From the IMG/VR virus record IMGVR_UViG_2734482774_000009: 8,682 nucleotides of DNA. The stretch is one strand, 5' to 3'. Origin of the DNA: a virus (lineage: Duplodnaviria > Heunggongvirae > Uroviricota > Caudoviricetes). Shown piece after piece: positions 1 through 8,682 of the stretch (positions within the stretch are counted from its first letter, which is position 1; each line of letters begins with the position of its first letter). A program made the position numbers and the translations under genes. The notes under the pieces are model-generated. The model was not told the DNA's origin. It worked only from the letters and a program-made list of their open reading frames with translations, and searched no databases.

Positions 1-153
1 ATGGCAAAGCCGATCATCACGCTCAATGGCCTAAAAATCGTCATTATGTTGGGAATGCTGGTCATTATTCTCTGCGGTATCCGTTTTGCCGCCGAGATCA
101 TCGTGCCGTTTATTCTCGCATTATTTATTGCTGTTATATATAACTTATTTTGA
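1..153 (+). pseudogene. tqsA: 5' fragment (50 codons) of an inner-membrane transporter gene, TqsA (AI-2 exporter)-like N-terminus; frame diverges after about codon 46 and stops at 151-153
   Basis: Hand translation: [45 protein letters not shown] then IYNLF-stop. Strongly hydrophobic, TM-helix-like. Identity to TqsA/YdgG is recalled, not searched. Sequence becomes AT-rich and non-coding immediately after, consistent with an insertion junction near 138-150. Confidence 0.45.
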
Positions 154-756: not shown

Positions 757-848
757 CCTTAATCATCTGCGTAAACATAAGTAATCATAATGATCATTCA
801 GCCAGCGCAATTTTGAGCTTTGCTTTAATCTCAGTGAGTTACCGCCGC
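757..848. repeat. Direct repeat copy 2 (about 92 bp), abutting the 3' end of the 89-aa minus-strand gene
   Basis: ccttaatcatctgcgtaaacataagtaatcataatgatcattcagccagcgcaattttgagctttgctttaatc... aligns to 636-718. Confidence 0.6.
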
Positions 849-1108
849 AACCGTTCCGGCTTCTTCCAGTGGTACGTGATTTTCTCCTTCTCCCGATACA
901 TCTCCACGCGGCGACGGTATGCCAGCAACTCAAGGACTCTGGTTCGTATGTTGCGCTTAAGCTCAATACCATCACGGCGCATCACCTCAGCAACAACACG
1001 CGCATAATTTTCAGCGGTCACGCTGTCCGGTTGCGTGCCCTGTTCGTCATGCTGCTGGCTGATTCCGGTAACGCGGCGGATTAATCGCAGTAGTTCGGCT
1101 TCTGTCAT
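839..1108 (-). CDS. Hypothetical 89-aa protein with basic C-terminus, located just outside cos copy A
   Basis: ATG at 1108 preceded by GGGGG Shine-Dalgarno on the minus strand; TAA stop at 839-841. No family recognised from sequence. Confidence 0.5.
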   Translation of the reverse strand: MTEAELLRLIRRVTGISQQHDEQGTQPDSVTAENYARVVAEVMRRDGIELKRNIRTRVLELLAYRRRVEMYREKEKITYHWKKPERLRR

Positions 1109-1141: not shown

Positions 1142-1345
1142 CGGGTCCTTCCTGGAATTATGGCCCGTTACGGGGCGGCGACCTCGCGGTTTTTATCTGT
1201 TTATGAAAATTTTCCGGCAAAAGTCAGATCCGTTCTTCTTCTCTGTAACAGACTGTTTAACAATGAAAATATTAAAAAAAGAAAGGATCTGACACGAGGC
1301 ATTTTAGCCAGAAAATGCCATTATCAGATCCTTTCTCATTTTTGT
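1142..1345 (+). other. cos site copy A: cosQ-like segment, cosN (GGGCGGCGACCT at about 1173-1184), then a lambda-like cosB running rightward
   Basis: ttacg-gggcggcgacct-cgcgg matches the lambda cohesive-end region as recalled. Downstream tatgaaaattttccgg (1202-1217) is identical to the lambda 16-mer; ccgttcttcttc (1230-1241), aaagaaagga (1278-1287) and cctttctcatttttg (1330-1344) resemble lambda R3/R2/R1 Nu1-binding elements. 1142-1188 is one arm of a perfect 47-bp inverted repeat with 2036-2082. Confidence 0.8.
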
Positions 1346-1363: not shown

Positions 1364-1906
1364 TTACTTGCCTTTCTTCTGTAGCAACTTTTCCGGTACG
1401 TTTCCGGTTGTTTCTTTCAAGTAATCAGCCAGTATCTGTGGGAGGTTGTCGGCAACTCTGGCACTGGCATTACAGGCTTTAACCACTTCCCTTTTAAGCC
1501 TGTCCAGCATGGCGGGGGTAATCTGTGGGAAGCTCCTTTGCATAGTAAGCGGGAGGCTGTCCATGATTGATGAAATCTGACTCGCCAGCTTTGAAAGCGC
1601 GTACAGGCAAAACTCAGTATCAATCACGTCACCGCGATCGCGCTCGTTTTTAAGTTCCTGCGCCTCCGCCTGTGCTGTCAGTAATCTGATCCTGACTCGT
1701 AAGAGTTCATCATCATCAATATCGCCTTTGTCGTTTGTAAGCTGGCTAATTGCATTGTTAACCCTATTGTCTATCACGCTGGCAACATCATAAAACGCCT
1801 CACGGCCTTTACGTTCAACGGGAGTCACTCCCCACTTGTCGAACGCTGTCGCACTTACACGGCAGCTTTTCGCCATGTTTTTTTTGTTCATCAGATGAGA
1901 TTTCAT
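1364..1906 (-). CDS. Terminase small subunit, lambda Nu1-like (180 aa)
   Basis: C-terminal two-thirds aligns closely by eye to lambda Nu1 (LTAQAEAQELKNERDRGDVIDTEFCLYALSKLASQISSIMDSLPLTMQRSFP versus lambda LTRAQADAQELKNARDSAEVVETAFCTFVLSRIAGEIASILDGLPLSVQRRFP); N-terminal HTH-like region is more diverged. Start ambiguous among ATGs at 1906, 1891 and 1876 (no strong Shine-Dalgarno for any); the MNKK start at 1891 aligns best with Nu1 MEVNKK. Confidence 0.85.
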   Translation of the reverse strand: MKSHLMNKKNMAKSCRVSATAFDKWGVTPVERKGREAFYDVASVIDNRVNNAISQLTNDKGDIDDDELLRVRIRLLTAQAEAQELKNERDRGDVIDTEFCLYALSKLASQISSIMDSLPLTMQRSFPQITPAMLDRLKREVVKACNASARVADNLPQILADYLKETTGNVPEKLLQKKGK

Positions 1907-2082
1907 TAATACACCAACTTAATTACTGCTTCAGGTTGGTGTATTGTTTGCATCTTTCCCTTTTCATTCATAAAGATAGAGCAAACAACAAAACCACCAC
2001 CACCCCCCTGAAAAGGCTCATAAATAGCGAAAACGCGCGAGGTCGCCGCCCCGTAACGGGCCATAATTCCAGGAAGGACCCG
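1907..2082 (-). other. cos site copy B (inverted): cosQ-like plus cosN (2040-2051 on plus = GGGCGGCGACCT on minus), with a divergent cosB between cosN and the terS start
   Basis: 2036-2082 is the exact reverse complement of 1142-1188. On the minus strand cosN is followed by cgcgcgttttcgctatttatga (lambda: cgcgggttttcgctatttatga), then diverges. An 11-bp inverted repeat AATACACCAAC / GTTGGTGTATT (1909-1919 / 1935-1945) sits immediately upstream of terS. Confidence 0.8.
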
Positions 2083-2083
2083 T

Positions 2084-2106
2084 AAAAAAGCCGGATTTCT
2101 CCGGCC
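2084..2106 (-). terminator. Rho-independent terminator closing the capsid operon
   Basis: Minus strand reads GCCGGAGAAATCCGGC followed by a T-run (plus-strand aaaaaagccggatttctccggcc). A near-identical hairpin recurs at 4355-4376. Confidence 0.65.
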
Positions 2107-2111
2107 TTGTC

Positions 2112-2525
2112 TCAGATGGTTTTCAGTATGCGATCGATGTCGCCGTCATCGCCCTGGTTTCTGCCATCGTATGCCATGCCAGCTGATACGGCTTGCGGGC
2201 TGTGCATGTCCATAAAGTTTTCAAAGGCTGCGGTAAGTTCCGGCGCAACCTTCGGACGTTCCTGCTCTATGGTCATGCTAAGGATGCTTTTAGCCGTACC
2301 AACATCGATACAAGGCACGTTTGCCATTGCACGCAACAGCGGCTGATAGTCTTTATGCTCATGAAGCGCCATAATCGCATCAGCGCGCGGCTTGTCCTGC
2401 TCTTCCAGTTTGTTTAGTTGATATACGGCCTCATAGGTTGATAAACCTCTGTCAGCCATTGCCCGCGCTTCGGCTTTAAATTTACTCGCCAGCGGTAGCG
2501 TCATGATGCTTTCATTCGTTGCCAT
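2112..2525 (-). CDS. Hypothetical 137-aa protein, last gene of the capsid operon
   Basis: ATG at 2525 with GGGGGA Shine-Dalgarno; 12 bp downstream of the gpD-like stop. Acidic C-terminus (DDGDIDRILKTI). No family recognised. Confidence 0.6.
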   Translation of the reverse strand: MATNESIMTLPLASKFKAEARAMADRGLSTYEAVYQLNKLEEQDKPRADAIMALHEHKDYQPLLRAMANVPCIDVGTAKSILSMTIEQERPKVAPELTAAFENFMDMHSPQAVSAGMAYDGRNQGDDGDIDRILKTI

Positions 2526-2537
2526 CGTTCCCCCTGC

Positions 2538-2873
2538 TTATCGGGCCAGCGGCTGAACGGATACGCCGGAACCCGCAAAGGCGGCGCATTTTTTCGCATC
2601 GGTGTCGACGCTCTCAGGCCAGTTAACGGCGGCAATATTGAATATCCCCGTCTTGTAACACTGTGCTGATTTCTGCTTTGACGTGTCCACAGGGTACGAG
2701 GTCAGATAAACAGCCTTGCCAGATTCCTTACCATCCCACGGCTTAAACTCGCCATTGTCCGCCAGCATCAGCGGGGTAAATTCCTGAATAACGCCAGCAT
2801 CAGCGGCAAAATGTACCAGCGTCGTGGCGACCTGCTGACTGCCTGCAAATAACTCAATGTATGGAGTGTCCAT
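2538..2873 (-). CDS. Head decoration protein, lambda gpD-like (111 aa)
   Basis: Motifs shared with lambda gpD as recalled: TPLML(A/D), WDG, YK(T/S)G(I/T)F, WPE, KK(C/R)(A/T)AFAG; same length class (lambda D is 110 aa). GGGGGGA Shine-Dalgarno before ATG 2873. Confidence 0.85.
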   Translation of the reverse strand: MDTPYIELFAGSQQVATTLVHFAADAGVIQEFTPLMLADNGEFKPWDGKESGKAVYLTSYPVDTSKQKSAQCYKTGIFNIAAVNWPESVDTDAKKCAAFAGSGVSVQPLAR

Positions 2874-2885
2874 AGAATCCCCCCG

Positions 2886-3941
2886 TTAACCAATTTTGAC
2901 GGTAACAAATTTGCGAATATCTGCCGGTACCGGCTGCGGTGCACTGTGTGTCTGCACGTACTCAATCGCCGGATCGCCGTCCTCAATCCAGTTTTTCGGG
3001 TAAAACATGTTTTGTGTTGCGCCCGTTCTTACCGCTTCCTGATCCATTATCGCACCATAGGCCACCAGCCCTTTATTGTTGGTGTTGCCCAGAACCAGCA
3101 AATCAGGCTCAAGGAAATATTTTTCTGTGCCGTCGCTGTCAGCGTATTTGCCGGAATAGACGATAAGGGCAATATCGCCCAGATAGCCTTTAAAGCTCAC
3201 CACTTCGCCCAGGTTTTTACAGGCCAGTTCTGCGGCGGATTCTGAACCACGGGAAAGATCGTACAGCTCACGGAATTTTTTAAAGCTGCGTAACGTGCGC
3301 CATACCTCAGCGCCCATAATCATGACGTTTGCGGGGCAACCAGCCTGATCAGCATAAAGCTCGATGTCATAGATTGGGTCGTGCATCTCTTTATCCTGCT
3401 CGGACCATTTTTTACCCTTGCCCTGCTCTATGATGCAGTTTTCCGGTATTTTCCAGTCTATTTCATAGCGTTCTATGCCTTCGCCCTCAATAATGTTTTT
3501 TCCGGTCGTTATCGCATTCACCGCCAGCCATTCCACGCGCGCTTTAATGGCGTTTACCTGGCGGCGCATGTTGCCAGTAATCAGGCGCATACGTCGGTAG
3601 GTAGGGTCGTTAAGCTGTGCCGGATCTTCTCCAGCCATGCGCATGATGGTTTTTGTTGGATCGATTTCGTGCTTTGGCTTCATGTAGCCAGGTTTAATCG
3701 TGCTGGTTTCGTATCCTTTATCGCGCTGTACCTGGCTGCCAACCATAGGCGAACAAAACGCCGACATGGTGACTTCTTCAATGTCCAGGGTATCCAGCAT
3801 GATGTTTTGGGTGCTGAATGTCGCCACGTTCGGGAAAAACAGCGTGGTAAACAGCGGACTGAATTTAAATTCCGCAATATCCCCGCGATTCAGGTACGCA
3901 AAAAGCTGGTTAGTGTTAAGTGCCGTTGCTTTGCCTGCCAT
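2886..3941 (-). CDS. Major capsid protein, lambda gpE family (351 aa)
   Basis: Blocks matching lambda gpE as recalled: FKF(S/D)PLF, PGY(M/V)KPKHE(I/V), DP(T/A)YRR(M/R)R(L/I)I, VLGNT, YPKNW; similar length (lambda E is 341 aa). TAATG overlap with the upstream 68-aa gene; GGGGGTGA Shine-Dalgarno. Confidence 0.9.
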   Translation of the reverse strand: MAGKATALNTNQLFAYLNRGDIAEFKFSPLFTTLFFPNVATFSTQNIMLDTLDIEEVTMSAFCSPMVGSQVQRDKGYETSTIKPGYMKPKHEIDPTKTIMRMAGEDPAQLNDPTYRRMRLITGNMRRQVNAIKARVEWLAVNAITTGKNIIEGEGIERYEIDWKIPENCIIEQGKGKKWSEQDKEMHDPIYDIELYADQAGCPANVMIMGAEVWRTLRSFKKFRELYDLSRGSESAAELACKNLGEVVSFKGYLGDIALIVYSGKYADSDGTEKYFLEPDLLVLGNTNNKGLVAYGAIMDQEAVRTGATQNMFYPKNWIEDGDPAIEYVQTHSAPQPVPADIRKFVTVKIG

Positions 3942-4147
3942 TATTCACCCCCATAATTTTTATGCATCCCAAGCGCCGCAAGTAAATAAGAGCGCACAAG
4001 TGAACCTATCGACGGCTCCGGCGTCATCAGCGGATCCAGTCCAGCCGCTACGCCAGCCTCATAGTTTTTTTTGTGGCGCTGCTTGAGCACCTCCACGATT
4101 TCGGGGCTTATGTACACCGAAACACCGCCTTTTTTCTCTTCTGCCAT
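3941..4147 (-). CDS. Hypothetical 68-aa protein, first gene of the capsid operon
   Basis: ATG at 4147 with AGAGGAA Shine-Dalgarno; stop overlaps the capsid gene start (translational coupling). No family recognised. Confidence 0.55.
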   Translation of the reverse strand: MAEEKKGGVSVYISPEIVEVLKQRHKKNYEAGVAAGLDPLMTPEPSIGSLVRSYLLAALGMHKNYGGE

Positions 4148-4180
4148 AGTCAGAAATTCCTCTTTGACTTAAAAAATCAC

Positions 4181-4231
4181 AACTGGATGTTCATCCAGTT
4201 ATGATTATAATCATGATTGCATTTTGCGCAA
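4181..4231 (-). promoter_or_regulatory. Putative capsid-operon promoter with operator palindromes
   Basis: Perfect 20-bp palindrome AACTGGATG-TT-CATCCAGTT (4181-4200; CTG-N10-CAG spacing). Adjacent palindrome ATGATT-AT-AATCAT (4201-4214) contains TATAAT; candidate -35 TTGCGC on the minus strand at 4231-4226 with 16-bp spacer. Confidence 0.4.
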
Positions 4232-4384: not shown

Positions 4385-4795
4385 TCAGAACGGAATATCA
4401 TCACCGTAGGGGTCATCGTCTCCCGCTGGTGGCTGATTACCCTGTGCGCCTGTGGTTTTGCGTCTGTTCCCGCCAGGACGTGCCGCACGGGCACTGATTA
4501 CGCTGTCTGCAATAACCTGATAACCCTGCCGCGTTTCCCCGTTCTGTCCGGTCCACTGGCTTATCTGCATCACGCCAGATATGCTGGCAACGTCGCCTTT
4601 TTGATGTTTAGCCAGGAAGTCGGCCTGCTTACCAAATGCCATCACCGATAGCCATAACGTAGCCGTTCCGTCATCTGCCTGGCTGCACGGAAGGGGGACC
4701 GCCATACGCGCCAGCGTCATCGGTGTGCCCTTGCTGGTCTGTTTTACCTGCGGGTCGTCCACCAGCCGCCCGTAAGCGGCTATCTGTGCTGTCAT
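4385..4795 (-). CDS. ssb: Single-stranded DNA-binding protein (short SSB, 136 aa)
   Basis: C-terminal acidic tail DDDPYGDDIPF (E. coli SSB ends DDDIPF); OB-fold-like N-terminal region; Gly/Pro-rich linker. GGAGAGGTGG Shine-Dalgarno; ATGA overlap with the upstream gene. Confidence 0.85.
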   Translation of the reverse strand: MTAQIAAYGRLVDDPQVKQTSKGTPMTLARMAVPLPCSQADDGTATLWLSVMAFGKQADFLAKHQKGDVASISGVMQISQWTGQNGETRQGYQVIADSVISARAARPGGNRRKTTGAQGNQPPAGDDDPYGDDIPF

Positions 4796-5106
4796 GATTC
4801 CACCTCTCCGGTTTTAACGTTGATGGTTGTTACCTGTTCCGCTTCGGCAATCTCCCGTTCTGTCAGCGTGGCAAAGTTTGCCGCCGCTGTGGTCATGAAT
4901 GCGCTTATCAGTTCGGGATGTTCCTTCGCGTATCCTTCCCGCGTGTGGCGGTCTATCGTTCTGATTGCCACCTTTAAGGTGTGCTCAGTCATGTCTAACG
5001 CTTTATATTTTGGCTCTGTTCTGTCTCTGCGAATTTTGGTCATTTGTCGCCCCTGATTCATGTTTTCGGCTGGCATGTTTGTTAAGTGATTTTGATGTAT
5101 GCGCAT
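4792..5106 (-). CDS. Hypothetical 104-aa protein co-transcribed with ssb
   Basis: ATG at 5106 with strong GAGGGGGTGA Shine-Dalgarno; an alternative internal start at 5043 also has AGGGG. Stop overlaps the ssb start. No family recognised. Confidence 0.55.
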   Translation of the reverse strand: MRIHQNHLTNMPAENMNQGRQMTKIRRDRTEPKYKALDMTEHTLKVAIRTIDRHTREGYAKEHPELISAFMTTAAANFATLTEREIAEAEQVTTINVKTGEVES

Positions 5107-5153
5107 TTATTTTCACCCCCTCGTTTAAAAAGTTTTTAGTTGTGCCTCCCCCC

Positions 5154-5382
5154 CTCTACCCATCTACCCGAATGCTCATCATGTCAGTAATGGCGCGGCT
5201 TTCAGCGGGTAGATAGCTTTTTGAGCTCCTCTACCTGCCGTCTACCCTGCTACCTGAAACTGATAAAATCAGGTAGAAGAGGTAGAGAGCTTTTATTAGC
5301 CTTCTACCTGGCCCTCTACCCACTTATCATGTTGAATAATATGTATTTATTTCATTCAGGTAGATGGGGTAGAGGGCTTTTA
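5154..5382. repeat. Putative replication origin: iteron array plus AT-rich segment
   Basis: At least 11 copies of the hexamer core TCTACC / GGTAGA in both orientations within about 225 bp, where about 4 would be expected by chance in the whole window. Three extended copies GGTAGA-nnGCTTTT at about 5208, 5281 and 5368. AT-rich stretch at 5326-5357. Lies immediately downstream of the primase stop (5390). Confidence 0.65.
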
Positions 5383-5389
5383 CAAAAAA

Positions 5390-7138
5390 TTATAAAAACG
5401 CGTCGCAATCGTCTGTTGTAATTGCGTTGGTCTGCGTTACTCCCTTAACTTTTCGCGTAATATATTCATGCCCGTAAACTTTCGCCGCTGGCTTCATGGC
5501 CTTGCTGAACTCAGCCACGTTTAGCGGTTTGCTCCTGCCTGCGTATGCCATAAACGCCAGATAGACGCGGTAAAGGCTGTTCCTGGTCGTGTACTTCACT
5601 GAATCACCACCGCCACCCATCATCAGGCCGCGCGCTTCCTCCAGAAAATTCAGGAACTGGCAAAACTCAATAACCGGATCCGTCTGTTGCTTTATTGCCA
5701 GTGCTTCATCACCGTCACGCTGTTCCAGTAGTAAAGCCCTCGCCTTTTCAGGGTCGGTAAAGTTCGCCAGCAAGCGGCGGATAATAACGGGGATTTCAGC
5801 CGCAATTTTTTCCGGTAGTTCCCTGTCTTTTTCGGCCTCACTAACAATATTGTCGAAACGGAAAATCACGCGACGACGTGCCACACCTCCGGCCCGTTCG
5901 GTGAATATCATCGGGTTATTATTGGTCGCCAGCACCACCGCCCTGATTACCGCCGTGAAACGCTTTTCATATTTCGGGTTTATTTCCACGGGGTCGCCGC
6001 CCGTGATTTTCTTGATGCCCGTTCCTTCGCCTGTATATTTCGGCTGGTCTGCCAGGACGATAAGACGACTCCCGACAACCTGCGCACGTCCACCAGCATC
6101 ATCAAGCGATGTCATTTCAGCGCTTACCGTGTTCTGTTTCCCTGCCAGAAGGCTGGCTATGTGTGTGAATGTACTTTTACCGCTCCCGCCGTCTCCGGTG
6201 GCCTCAATAAACATCTGCCAGTCGTACCGGTTCGCCATAATCATGTACAGCGCGGCACATATACGCATCATCTTGCGCGGGTCTTTTCCGGCTGCGTGAT
6301 CAAGCCATTTATGAAAGTTTGGCGCGTTGTCGCGGATATTCTCCCCTGGTGCTGGTGGCGTGTATTCAATGCCGTTGTGCGTGGTGATCCAGTTCTCCGG
6401 CGTGTGCGGGGAAAATTCCCCTGTTTTCAGGTCAAGCGCACCATTGGCGAACGGCAACAAATCGCCGGACGGCTCGCCCATTGGTTCGGCAATAACTTTT
6501 AATGCTTCCACGGCGTTATTGATTACGCGCTTGCTGAAAGTGGCCCTGTGCTCTGAATAGATCGCCACCATTTCGCGGCTAAGTTCCATTGTGCTGACCG
6601 GACACCATACCCCGCCGCGCCATACGTGAACGATTTCACTTTCCGGATGCACACAAACGCCATCAAATCGACCAGCAAGCATCTGTGCGCGCTCACTGTC
6701 TGCCATTTGTGCCAGTTGCGTATTTTTCTGCTCCGGCATGGTAAGCCCTGCGGCAATATTTTCACGCTCAGCATTCAGATAGCGCCGCCAGTTTTCACAC
6801 TTCTGGACGTGCATTCCTTCGTGGTAAAAATTTGCGTCCTGAATATCTGCCGCCGCCAGCTTCTGACCAATCTTTTTGGTCTCCACTAAATCCAGTTCTC
6901 CGGCCTGGTACAGCCTTACGCGCTTTTTCCCATCCGGAACAATTTTCAGCGCATCAAGTTCGGCAAGCTGCTTTGGCCCAAGCCACACAGGCGGCACATT
7001 ATCGCCGGATGCGGGGCCATCCTGCTCCTGCCATTGTTTCGCGTGCGACCAGGCATCACTACCCGCAAAGATAATTACCTCTGTGTCTTTGTGTTTTATT
7101 CCGCGTGGCTGTTTTTTTACGTTCGGTGCCAGTTTCAT
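5390..7138 (-). CDS. Replication initiator: P4-type primase/helicase (582 aa)
   Basis: Walker A ATGDGGSGKSTF and Walker-B-like LIVLADQ in the C-terminal half, with an N-terminal primase-like region, as in P4 alpha / PICI Pri-Rep-type proteins (recalled). AGGGG Shine-Dalgarno; ATGA overlap with the upstream 99-aa gene. Confidence 0.85.
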   Translation of the reverse strand: MKLAPNVKKQPRGIKHKDTEVIIFAGSDAWSHAKQWQEQDGPASGDNVPPVWLGPKQLAELDALKIVPDGKKRVRLYQAGELDLVETKKIGQKLAAADIQDANFYHEGMHVQKCENWRRYLNAERENIAAGLTMPEQKNTQLAQMADSERAQMLAGRFDGVCVHPESEIVHVWRGGVWCPVSTMELSREMVAIYSEHRATFSKRVINNAVEALKVIAEPMGEPSGDLLPFANGALDLKTGEFSPHTPENWITTHNGIEYTPPAPGENIRDNAPNFHKWLDHAAGKDPRKMMRICAALYMIMANRYDWQMFIEATGDGGSGKSTFTHIASLLAGKQNTVSAEMTSLDDAGGRAQVVGSRLIVLADQPKYTGEGTGIKKITGGDPVEINPKYEKRFTAVIRAVVLATNNNPMIFTERAGGVARRRVIFRFDNIVSEAEKDRELPEKIAAEIPVIIRRLLANFTDPEKARALLLEQRDGDEALAIKQQTDPVIEFCQFLNFLEEARGLMMGGGGDSVKYTTRNSLYRVYLAFMAYAGRSKPLNVAEFSKAMKPAAKVYGHEYITRKVKGVTQTNAITTDDCDAFL

Positions 7139-7434
7139 TTTTTACCCCTGAATCCGTTAATCATGGTTTTCAGCTTCTGGATGTTTGCCCGTGCCCTGGC
7201 GTTGCTGGTGGGCACGTTATGCGGCGCGGTCTGTACCAGAGAAAAATCACGCCGGAACTGATAAACAGGCATCACGCAATCATATTCGTAACCTTCACGG
7301 CGGTAAGTTACGCACCGTCCCGCCACGCCCTTAATCATTACCGTGCCGCCGTACTGGTCGCGGTAAATATCACCGCGCGTAAATTTTGGGTGAGTGTTGC
7401 CACTGGCAGTTAAGCCAGAATATTTAAGTTTCAT
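7135..7434 (-). CDS. Hypothetical 99-aa protein, translationally coupled to the primase
   Basis: ATG 7434 with GGAGA upstream; stop overlaps the primase ATG. Confidence 0.55.
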   Translation of the reverse strand: MKLKYSGLTASGNTHPKFTRGDIYRDQYGGTVMIKGVAGRCVTYRREGYEYDCVMPVYQFRRDFSLVQTAPHNVPTSNARARANIQKLKTMINGFRGKK

Positions 7435-8310: not shown

Positions 8311-8377
8311 AACGGCTCCTCGTTTACGTTGTTGGTTAGAAGCCCCGTTACTGCTCCTACAGTGCGGGGTTTCGTCG

Positions 8378-8473
8378 TTTCAACACCTTGCCTAAATAAG
8401 GTGTTGAACACCAATTTAAATCGAGGTGTTAAACACGTCAAGTGTTGAACACTTATTTTTTTTCCTGCATACT
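8378..8473. promoter_or_regulatory. Divergent control region with three 11-bp palindromic operators GTGTT(G/A)AACAC and a half-site
   Basis: Sites at 8401-8411, 8426-8436, 8442-8452, plus half-site caacacc at about 8381-8387. Candidate plus-strand promoter: -35 TTGAAC (8445-8450, inside operator 3), 17-bp spacer, -10 CATACT (8468-8473). Confidence 0.55.
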
Positions 8474-8502
8474 GCATTTGTTTTTTATGAGGGGTGCTCA
8501 AC

Positions 8503-8682
8503 ATGGCGACAAAAGCAGTAAACGCAAAATCACAAACAGTTGCGGCAAGGGTTCCACATGAAGTTATGAACAATGTTGAGGCGGTAAAAATGCCCGGCGA
8601 AAGTACAGGGCAGTTTGTTACAGCTGCATTAAAGCGGGAAGTTGAATACCGCCAGCGTCGCAAGGCCAAAGAATCAGAATAA
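8503..8682 (+). CDS. Small DNA-binding regulator, ribbon-helix-helix (Arc/CopG-like) candidate, 59 aa
   Basis: ATG 8503 with GAGGGG Shine-Dalgarno 8 nt upstream (track ORF starts at a GTG at 8494). Pattern TVAARVPHEV (beta-strand) - MNNVEAV (helix) - G - STGQFVTAALKREV (helix) fits an RHH fold; basic C-terminal tail. Only gene transcribed away from the minus-strand operons. Confidence 0.5.
   Translation: MATKAVNAKSQTVAARVPHEVMNNVEAVKMPGESTGQFVTAALKREVEYRQRRKAKESE

Follow-up and report, generated by a model that had tools for sequence, protein, structure and literature searches.

The window, by which we mean the whole analysed stretch of 8,682 nucleotides, is most of a classical Gram-negative cos-type PICI of the EcCICFT073 family, inserted in tqsA. 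We read the four-gene module that it carries at positions 2112–4147 as an auxiliary full-size head-shell set, and the full account, island identity and reading of the module combined, is one that we favour with moderate confidence. The element is largely an already described type, the EcCICFT073-type PICI of E. coli, and the finding is mostly ordinary because the satellite type is known and near-identical genes have proved dispensable for transfer and interference when knocked out. To the existing picture we add the homology of a 137-aa protein to Nu3/gpC, the purifying selection on the shell genes and the clade that they form, and a TerS with a rewritten-R-box cosB in the place of RppA. A first-pass annotation of the region was partly confirmed in what it had observed and partly supported in how it had interpreted those observations.

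The island end is marked by a 5' fragment of tqsA (positions 1–153, plus strand; annotated as a partial AI-2 transporter), the host gene interrupted by the insertion. In a 98.5%-identical relative (L001), the complete island is about 11 kb long, is likewise inserted in tqsA and has its integrase at the far end, with the remainder of tqsA lying about 11 kb away, past the integrase. According to the SatelliteFinder paper, the PICI core set comprises int, alpA, pri-rep, capsid and terS, and elements with all five are designated 'Type A'. All five components are present in this island, int and alpA by proxy: the window ends before int, so that the integrase and the insertion at a chromosomal site are taken from L001, and the alpA position, also outside the window, is occupied in L001 and CFT073 by a 62-aa HTH regulator adjoining int. 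In the Salmonella, Edwardsiella and E. coli relatives, this position carries a PF05930 Phage_AlpA annotation. Capsid morphogenesis, of the Phage_cap_E type in Proteobacteria, is represented by a 351-aa protein, and packaging redirection by a Nu1-type TerS, two perfect lambda cosN sites and a cosB; portal, TerL, tail and lysis genes are lacking, as judged by tblastn and by the annotation of the complete L001 island. Induction by a helper and high-frequency transfer in helper particles have been shown experimentally only for EcCICFT073, the prototype of these cos PICIs from E. coli CFT073 (PMC6092414; PMC6739421).

The replication module (4385–7434, minus strand) encodes a DUF4222 protein, a D5_N/DUF5906 primase-replicase of 582 aa with D5_N, DUF5906 and Pox_D5 domains, a 104-aa protein and an SSB, its proteins being 90–94% identical to their EcCICFT073 counterparts. 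Its iteron-rich ori follows the primase gene, with iterons CCnTCTACCC / GGGTAGAGGG at about 5150–5380. The last gene before the attachment site (839–1108, minus strand) encodes a conserved island protein of 89 aa, which belongs to phrog_1561 and is 80% identical to the product of the EcCICFT073 93-aa gene. No tRNA genes were found, an Rfam scan returned no match, and a promoter scan yielded sites no more numerous than in shuffled sequence.

The first-pass annotation had regarded satellite-borne capsid and decoration genes as an unusual arrangement; this is instead the published architecture of classical enterobacterial PICIs. A capsid gene has been reported in 21 of the 29 reference Gram-negative PICIs, SatelliteFinder counts a 'capsid morphogenesis' gene among its five PICI core components, and EcCICFT073 itself carries c1499 (capsid) and c1500 (decoration) (PMC6092414; PMC6739421). 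Gene order is the same in the two islands: int, alpA, icd-like, DUF4222, primase, ori, SSB, 68 aa, capsid, decoration and 137 aa, followed by a packaging gene between two inverted cos sites and then a gene of about 90 aa. Amino-acid identities to EcCICFT073 reach 96% for the capsid protein, 100% for the decoration protein, 97.8% for the 137-aa protein, 94% for SSB and 90% for the primase, and the cosN of both islands is identical to that of lambda. The islands differ in the packaging gene, which encodes RppA (144 aa) in EcCICFT073 and a full-length Nu1-type TerS (180 aa), accompanied by a rewritten-R-box cosB, in the present element; in the PerC gene, which is absent here; and in the integration site, which is tqsA here and lies next to roxA/phoQ in EcCICFT073. 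Helper-embedded PICIs (e.g., Eco567.11capE, PMC10111431) are of the same island type and share the capsid–decoration(–TerS) late zone, but they sit in a helper prophage, whereas this island occupies the chromosomal gene tqsA. Some relatives were likewise found inside prophage genes, L007 and L008 in the portal gene and L010 in the capsid gene.

All four minus-strand ORFs recognised by the first-pass annotation within the module were recovered with exact coordinates, and its assignment of the two central ones was borne out. The major capsid protein (2886–3941, minus strand; 351 aa), the orthologue of c1499, belongs to the lambda gpE family with the HK97 fold (Pfam Phage_cap_E, E = 1e-50). Aligned with lambda gpE over 328 aa, it shows 43% identity and 2 gap positions. 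The EcCICFT073 capsid protein is PDB 3BQW, which it matches over its full length. The head decoration protein (2538–2873, minus strand; 111 aa), the orthologue of c1500, falls in the lambda gpD/phage 21 SHP family (Pfam HDPD, E = 2.5e-17) and matches solved gpD/SHP structures, including PDB 1TD0 (5.6e-13). The capsid gene stands ahead of the decoration gene, as the annotation had stated, opposite to the D-then-E order of lambda; the same order holds in all related islands examined. These relatives were located by searching for contigs that encode homologues, a contig scan with the single capsid protein having given no match.

The module opens with a gene for a 68-aa protein (3941–4147, minus strand; phrog_3255, of unknown function) that is translationally coupled to the capsid gene through a 1-nt overlap. 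Its product is 67.6% identical to that of the EcCICFT073 68-aa gene, and in Salmonella and Edwardsiella islands homologues of 70–74 aa stop exactly at the capsid start; the dN/dS of the gene is 0.34. The AF2 model consists of two helices (pLDDT 74.8). A ribbon-helix-helix fold was considered and found unsupported, as Foldseek searches against PDB and BFVD returned nothing at E <= 0.001, the best match being an unnamed viral protein at E = 0.097. Identity with gpW, which also has 68 aa in lambda, was rejected as well, BLASTP giving no alignment. Just upstream of this gene lies a terminator-like hairpin with a 14-bp stem and a U-run (4175–4206, minus strand; -19.3 kcal/mol, z = -5.2); the hairpin is conserved in L001 and, in EcCICFT073, ahead of the corresponding 68-aa gene. 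A second, intrinsic-terminator-like hairpin (GGCCGGA...UCCGGC plus U6; 2083–2106, minus strand) directly follows the stop codon of the 137-aa gene and closes the four-gene unit; it too is conserved in L001 and EcCICFT073.

Strong purifying selection acts on the capsid and decoration genes (dN/dS 0.05–0.10 and 0–0.085, respectively), which form a satellite-specific clade with at most 46% identity to any phage capsid (top value among 50,697 phage genomes). Megablast of the capsid module against phage genomes gave no match. The E–D pair is kept in Salmonella, Edwardsiella and divergent E. coli islands at 55–68% identity. Given the low dN/dS, the conserved pair, the translational coupling and the conserved flanking hairpins, the four-gene module is a real, maintained unit. 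These data bear directly on the possibility that the genes are functionless cargo, either recently captured from helper late genes or left by a decaying cf-PICI. Such cargo would fit the variability of the third gene, the published knockouts without a phenotype and the late-gene capture described for PICIs and helper-embedded PICIs. Strong purifying selection and intact co-linear E–D pairs across genera speak against it, however. Moreover, no phage capsid exceeds 46% identity, and the capture is therefore not recent; the E–D–Nu3-like order is opposite to that of phages, so that the module is not a simple excised block; and the SatelliteFinder trees place the capsid genes of PICIs and cf-PICIs in phylogenetically separate groups. 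We consider this explanation highly improbable.

The gene that closes the module (2112–2525, minus strand) encodes a protein of 137 aa, of which the C-terminal two thirds share homology with the end of the lambdoid scaffold Nu3/gpC. Specifically, residues 45–131 correspond to the final repeat of lambdoid gpC/Nu3 and to its C-terminal tail, as indicated by phrog_53 (positions 495–567 of 583, E = 5e-9), by BLASTP against residues 416–493 of the 501-aa gpC of the CFT073 prophage (36% identity, E = 4e-9) and by hhalign against gpC/Nu3 C-termini (probability 96.4%, E = 1e-9). Its only tblastn matches in phage genomes are genes annotated Nu3, and a whole-library HMMER search matched a 195-aa Nu3-type protein (E = 4e-5). 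On this domain homology, the gene is a putative Nu3-like mini-scaffold; in lambda, Nu3 is the scaffold and has E, B and C as partners (cited literature). The homology is visible only with gpC of the phage-21/CFT073-prophage type and with profiles, direct BLASTP against lambda C/Nu3 being not significant. Lambda, the helper in the published test of capsid size, has a Nu3 tail of another type than the one to which the 137-aa protein is similar. Searches of Pfam, NCBIfam and PDB sequences gave no curated family match, and the PGAP label 'phage head-tail connector' found no support in the same three resources. The AF2 monomer model is all-helical and of low confidence (pLDDT 46.6). With a dN/dS of about 0.45, the gene is less constrained than its neighbours, and its family is very narrow, since an exhaustive HMMER search gave 8 matches, whereas a word-indexed search recovered E. 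coli copies only. It is not a universal third gene either: it is absent from the Salmonella and Edwardsiella islands, and a 114-aa protein takes its place in another E. coli lineage. Because residues 45–131 share homology with the gpC/Nu3 tail, the earlier statement that the element has no scaffold was wrong. Its description as an E-plus-D-only set likewise fails, given this Nu3-like gene and the Nu1-type TerS with two cos sites immediately downstream.

The remaining head genes are indeed missing, as the first-pass annotation had claimed. By tblastn, neither the window nor four complete related islands, used to look beyond it, gave any sign of portal, TerL, W, FI, FII or the protease domain of gpC. 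With A, B, W, C, FI and FII of lambda and of the CFT073 prophage as tblastn queries, the sole match was the C-terminal tail of C. The element is thus a satellite with capsid and decoration genes that lacks portal, protease and TerL, and not a capsid-forming PICI. The cf-PICI EcCIEDL933 shares the int, alpA and primase backbone and a satellite-borne HK97-fold capsid gene; cf-PICIs, however, make small capsids of their own and have additional genes for portal, protease, head-tail connectors, HNH and TerL; a search for such components (portal, prohead protease, head-tail adaptor or connector, HNH, TerL) found none here. Membership among P4-like satellites, which are marked by the capsid-remodelling genes for Psu, Sid and Delta, was also rejected: a Pfam and PHROGs scan of ten proteins matched neither Psu nor any other P4 head-remodelling family, and the features in common with P4 are limited to the P4-type primase and an Icd-like gene. 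Compared with lambda, the island retains homologues of the shell (43%), the cement (35%), the scaffold tail and the small terminase (35%), together with 12/12 bases of cosN and the same cosB R3/R2/R1 geometry. It lacks A, W, B, the C protease domain, FI and FII, has terS between two inverted cos sites, arranges its head genes as E–D–Nu3-like where lambda has Nu3–D–E, and carries the scaffold homologue as a short, stand-alone protein with a novel N-terminal part.

At the position of RppA in EcCICFT073, this island has a gene for a full-length Nu1-type small terminase (1364–1906, minus strand; 180 aa; Pfam Phage_Nu1, 2e-23). The protein aligns with lambda Nu1 end to end at 35% identity (43% in the C-terminal part, 32% in the N-terminal part). 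Rpp proteins (RppA/B/C, 144–153 aa) have only the Nu1-like N-terminal DNA-binding domain, and RppA matches Nu1 residues 3–55 only, whereas the alignment of TerS extends through the Nu1 C-terminal part. An Rpp assignment was rejected, as BLASTP against RppA gave E = 13 and there was no PDB match to RppC. Upstream of terS, cos1 (2007–2082, minus strand) is an inverted-repeat arm with a perfect lambda cosN 12-mer at 2040–2051. The opposite arm, cos2 (1142–1342, plus strand), has its perfect cosN at 1173–1184 and then a cosB in lambda format, in which the R box TCAGATCC occurs three times, at 1224 (plus), 1285 (minus) and 1324 (plus), against 0.14 expected by chance; the offset of the boxes from cosN and their orientation pattern are those of lambda R3/R2/R1. 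The equivalent cos pair of EcCICFT073 is functional by experiment (PMC6092414; PMC6739421), and lambda A is known to bind the Nu1 C-terminus (cited literature). Packaging specificity would come from outside the capsid module, from the island's own TerS and cos sites: TerS probably binds the island-specific R boxes via its divergent N-terminus and probably recruits the helper TerL via its better conserved C-terminus. All experimental data come from the RppA-using EcCICFT073 and not from this TerS-carrying island.

The published experiments with EcCICFT073 constrain what the module can do. With lambda as helper, all packaged DNA was phage-sized; islands deleted for c1499 or c1500 interfered with lambda and were transferred by resident prophages as before; an island carrying c1499::cat was transferred efficiently by lambda and phi80; among post-ori genes expressed singly, c1503 (RppA) alone inhibited lambda; and rppA deletion alone restored plaquing (PMC6092414; PMC6739421). 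In the model built on the first-pass annotation, E and D would co-assemble on the helper portal and protease into a smaller satellite capsid that excludes the helper genome, the 137-aa protein possibly acting as a CpmB-like competing scaffold or in a Ccm-like manner. This is attractive in that the island owns shell, cement and scaffold-like genes, all under selection, in that its 137-aa protein joins a helper-type scaffold tail to an unrelated N-terminal part, and in that capsid homologues redirect capsid size in SaPIbov5 while PmCI172 makes small capsids. It is contradicted, however, for orthologues that are 96–100% identical, which packaged only phage-sized DNA and whose knockouts were without effect; by the same evidence from c1499, the gpE-like gene is non-essential for transfer, which the first-pass annotation had itself named as a finding that would speak against its view. 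The capsid protein also has no indels relative to gpE, and no single post-ori gene except rppA inhibited lambda. Even allowing that the size test used lambda and not the natural helper, we regard a smaller capsid as unlikely. SaPIbov5 Ccm and SaPI1 CpmB are likewise satellite-encoded homologues of a helper capsid or scaffold protein, but these cause small capsids and interference, whereas the EcCICFT073 orthologues do neither in published tests.

The same data make it highly unlikely that the capsid, decoration or scaffold-like proteins attack the helper directly by acting as dominant-negative subunits or decoys that would poison its head assembly or titrate it. Classical PICIs do interfere with their helpers, and divergent homologous subunits of about 45% identity could disturb a lattice; yet islands lacking c1499 or c1500 still blocked lambda, while plaquing was restored by rppA deletion alone and lambda inhibited only by rppA overexpression. 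The proposal that the two small proteins serve as interference factors finds no support for the same reason, c1503 (RppA) being the only inhibitor of lambda.

A function outside particle building would fit knockouts without a phenotype equally well. The capsid protein might, for example, be a variant that evades or sets off host defences which sense capsids, or the small ORF might have a regulatory role. Such a role would explain conservation in the face of unchanged transfer and interference in defence-poor laboratory strains; the 68-aa protein, however, has no significant fold or family match, and we judge this reading highly improbable. Literature searches brought up no later paper that assigns a function to PICI capsid genes.

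We therefore return to the auxiliary full-size head-shell set. The module, the late-zone or 'capsid morphogenesis' part of a PICI, is on our reading an old satellite-specific offshoot of a lambdoid head-gene cluster, in which a small coupled ORF is joined by genes for a shell protein (gpE-type), a cement protein (gpD-type) and a Nu3-like mini-scaffold. Upon helper induction, it would supply shell, cement and scaffold subunits that we infer to be geometrically equivalent to those of the helper, because the shell protein lacks indels relative to gpE (2 gap positions) and the scaffold tail matches the helper type. Such subunits may join or replace helper gpE, gpD and Nu3 on the helper portal and protease, yielding full-size T=7 heads, each with room for about four copies of the 11-kb island between cos sites. 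The module would thereby act as a back-up head-shell supply, redundant in the laboratory with a healthy helper and useful where helper head genes are limiting, interrupted (as in helper-embedded relatives) or mismatched; the idea of a back-up copy has been proposed in the helper-embedded PICI paper (PMC10111431). Because the published size test used lambda and only transfer and plaquing were measured, the data are compatible with normal-sized heads that are hybrid or satellite-built, and with small ones made with the natural helper. More specifically, the cognate helper might, instead of lambda, be a lambdoid of the phage-21/PhiR12/CFT073-prophage type, on whose portal a wholly or largely satellite-encoded shell would be built with the 137-aa protein as a dedicated or competing mini-scaffold, a tentative extension to which we assign a low probability.

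As a discovery, gpE- and gpD-like satellite genes without portal, protease and TerL carry little weight: they are a textbook feature of enterobacterial PICIs, the crystal structure of such a capsid protein has long been available, and the obvious knockouts have been done. What retains interest is that the genes are conserved, strongly constrained and confined to a satellite-specific clade, yet no phenotype has been found for them. The putative Nu3-like mini-scaffold turns 'capsid plus decoration' into a coherent set of shell, cement and scaffold, and the exchange of RppA for TerS with a rewritten lambda-format cosB places two solutions to cos-packaging piracy on one island backbone. In classical PICIs all virion proteins are stolen, and in cf-PICIs only the tails; if a satellite-built shell is indeed mounted on a helper portal, islands of this family would be a functional intermediate between the two.

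All long ORFs in the window lie on the minus strand, and the four genes flagged by the first-pass annotation were recovered exactly at their positions and lengths: a 68-aa protein (3941-4147), a 351-aa capsid protein (2886-3941), a 111-aa decoration protein (2538-2873) and a 137-aa protein (2112-2525). The capsid protein matched Pfam Phage_cap_E (E = 1e-50) and the phrog_29 major head protein (E = 5e-108); its alignment with lambda gpE, at 43% identity, covers 328 residues and contains just two gap positions. The decoration protein matched Pfam HDPD (E = 2.5e-17), phrog_49 and solved SHP/gpD structures. As sequence matches, both family assignments lie far beyond chance. Gene order is E then D, opposite to that of lambda, and the original observation was largely correct.

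The element is securely assigned to the EcCICFT073 family of classical cos phage-inducible chromosomal islands (PICIs), with the four genes as its conserved capsid morphogenesis module. The prototype Gram-negative PICI EcCICFT073 lies at 27930-38654 of the CFT073 genome (L005) and has the same gene order. Identities to its proteins are 96% for the capsid, 100% for the decoration protein, 97.8% for the 137-aa protein, 94% for SSB, 91% for DUF4222, 90% for the primase, 80% for the terminal protein of ~90 aa and 68% for the 68-aa protein. Its capsid protein matches PDB 3BQW along its full length; c1499 has been named a putative capsid protein and c1500 a head decoration protein (PMC6092414), and a capsid gene occurs in 21 of 29 reference Gram-negative PICIs (PMC10111431). 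The implied novelty was not supported: the arrangement was already known, its capsid structure has been solved and knockouts have been published. Around more distant capsid homologues, the capsid-decoration pair likewise occurs in PICI-type islands, among them those of Salmonella, Edwardsiella and a divergent E. coli lineage (68%, 64% and 55% identity, respectively); none of these islands has a portal, protease or TerL gene of its own. Some of them sit within the portal or capsid gene of a prophage. The portal gene of an Edwardsiella lambdoid prophage (L007 1786-11394, L008) and the capsid E gene of an E. coli prophage (L010 2919-12783) are the sites of such related islands; these are helper-embedded PICIs, each with an intact capsid-decoration pair of its own beside the head genes of the helper.

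A 5' fragment of the host tqsA gene opens the window, and in L001, a 98.5%-identical E. coli relative, the whole element is an island of ~11 kb splitting tqsA. Its order is integrase, HTH regulator, icd-like gene, small ORFs, DUF4222, primase and SSB, then the late genes (68 aa, capsid, decoration, 137 aa, TerS and two small ORFs). A tblastn search of the window and of four complete relatives, with TerL (A), W, portal (B), C, FI and FII from lambda and the CFT073 prophage as queries, brought up nothing beyond Nu1, D, E and the far C-terminal end of C. The claim that portal, protease and TerL are absent was thus upheld, and no further head genes were found in the complete relatives just outside the span of the window. 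The best E. coli relatives (H1-H14) match the window only as far as 8345; the last ~340 bases (8346-8682), including a YlcI/YnfO-like ORF (8494-8682), match a different island set (H15), suggesting mosaicism at the regulatory end. Near the island end lie direct repeats of 66 nt (648-713 and 781-846, 89% identical) and 24 nt (634-657 and 757-780, 96% identical), with a spacing of about 130 nt in each family; an 89-aa gene overlaps, at its 3' end, the second of the 66-nt copies. Iterons (CCnTCTACCC / GGGTAGAGGG) are packed densely, in both orientations, at 5150-5380, just downstream of the primase-replicase gene; this array is probably the island replication origin.

The proposed "E plus D only" set was not borne out, the 137-aa protein being homologous to the gpC/Nu3 scaffold C-terminus. 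Its residues 46-119 match the C-terminal end of phrog_53, a head maturation protease (positions 495-567 of 583, E = 5e-9), and residues 49-131 share 36% identity with residues 416-493 of the 501-residue gpC of the CFT073 lambdoid prophage (E = 4e-9). Profile-profile comparison with gpC/Nu3 C-termini gave 96.4% probability (E = 1e-9), Nu3-annotated genes were the sole matches in 50,697 phage genomes, and an exhaustive HMMER search recovered a 195-aa Nu3-type protein. Similarity at this level indicates a scaffold-related protein, and the Nu3-like identity of the gene is newly recognised here. Lambda Nu3 is a scaffold whose partners are E, B and C; the island set therefore comprises shell, cement and a putative mini-scaffold. 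The PGAP name "head-tail connector" for the 137-aa protein found no support in Pfam, NCBIfam or PDB sequence matches. The family is very narrow, essentially confined to E. coli, while Salmonella, Edwardsiella and a further E. coli lineage lack the gene or have a different one in its place. Some E. coli copies (P0027, P0030, P0031) are 93 aa long through a clean in-frame deletion of residues 21-64, which takes away the beginning of the Nu3-like segment (aligned residues 45-124) and leaves the remainder, C-terminal tail included.

The possibility that the module is junk is less likely: dN/dS is 0.05-0.10 for the capsid gene and 0-0.085 for the decoration gene, values indicating that this core pair is kept up as working genes; ratios for the 137-aa and 68-aa genes are about 0.45 and 0.34, respectively. 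Phage capsid proteins reach at most 46% identity to the island capsid, so that capture from a helper was not recent; by sequence divergence, the module forms a distinct clade. The 68-aa stop overlaps the capsid start, an overlap conserved in other genera. For the 68-aa protein itself, family and fold searches yielded no functional assignment. A strong hairpin with a U-run (4175-4206, z = -5.2) lies ahead of the four-gene unit and a GC-stem terminator with U6 comes after the stop of the 137-aa gene; L001 and CFT073 share both elements. P0069, a 463-aa metagenome-derived capsid homologue, carries Phage_cap_E and HDPD domains in a single product and is either a capsid-decoration fusion or an assembly/frameshift artefact. 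P0119 (79 aa, E. coli) combines a PerC-family N-terminus with the C-terminal half of the 68-aa protein; a PerC gene (L005 34959-35207) lies directly upstream of the 68-aa gene in EcCICFT073, suggesting a deletion fusion. The window's island lacks a PerC gene.

Directly downstream of the module, a 180-aa TerS (1364-1906) is 35% identical to lambda Nu1 end to end (C-terminal part 43%, N-terminal part 32%), whereas EcCICFT073 carries in this position RppA (L005 37659-38093), which resembles the Nu1 N-terminus only. The two genes appear as a module swap in a nearly identical backbone, with flanking genes 80-98% identical. A 76-nt inverted repeat (1142-1217 and 2007-2082, 88% complementary) surrounds terS, and both arms contain a perfect lambda cosN 12-mer; the two 12-mers flank the gene and point in opposite directions (1173-1184, plus; 2040-2051, minus). 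In EcCICFT073, rppA is flanked in the same way (cosN at L005 37558, plus, and 38297, minus), and both of these cos sites are functional. Cleavage at both window sites would free a terS segment of ~870 bp. Inside the primase gene, a third 12-mer that differs from cosN at one base (GGGCGGCGACCC, minus, 5991-6002) is probably a chance match. The arm beyond the terS 3' end (cos2) is followed by a complete lambda-format cosB (1173-1342 including cosN) with three TCAGATCC boxes; no others occur in the window, where 0.14 would be expected by chance. The other site, cos1, upstream of terS, lacks such R boxes. Spacing and +/-/+ orientation are those of lambda R3/R2/R1, with the first box at lambda's offset, 53 from cosN. 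However, the core is CAGATCC in the island and CGTTTCC in lambda, and the window cosB points at the terS 3' end, convergent with terS, unlike the lambda arrangement. We infer that the island TerS probably reads its own R boxes and brings in helper TerL through its C-terminus; in lambda, A is known to bind the Nu1 C-terminus.

Published experiments bear directly on function. Deletion of c1499 or c1500 in EcCICFT073 neither relieved lambda interference nor affected transfer by resident prophages (PMC6092414), and among genes downstream of ori expressed singly, only c1503 (RppA) inhibited lambda; helper interference by module proteins is accordingly less likely. The gpE-like gene is thus non-essential for transfer in a 96%-identical orthologue, a result that counts against the first-pass reading, and no later functional assignment for these capsid and decoration genes was found in the literature. 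The first-pass reading of a satellite-specific, possibly smaller capsid gained no support, the orthologue knockouts being without effect on transfer or interference. Packaged EcCICFT073 DNA is reported as phage-sized (PMC6092414), in agreement with a lambda-size head that would be filled by four 11-kb units (44 kb). Redirection of capsid size is thus a less likely role, even though that test used lambda, whose Nu3 tail is of another type than the tail most like the 137-aa protein. A role unconnected with the virion is also considered less likely. Given the lambda-like geometry of the proteins and the helper type of the scaffold tail, we favour the module as an auxiliary or back-up source of shell, cement and scaffold subunits, which would form full-size heads on the portal and protease of the helper. 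In laboratory assays this source would be redundant; it could be advantageous where the head genes of the helper are limiting, mismatched or, as in the helper-embedded relatives, interrupted. The residual interest of the module lies in its conservation and in the recognition of a Nu3-like gene within it.
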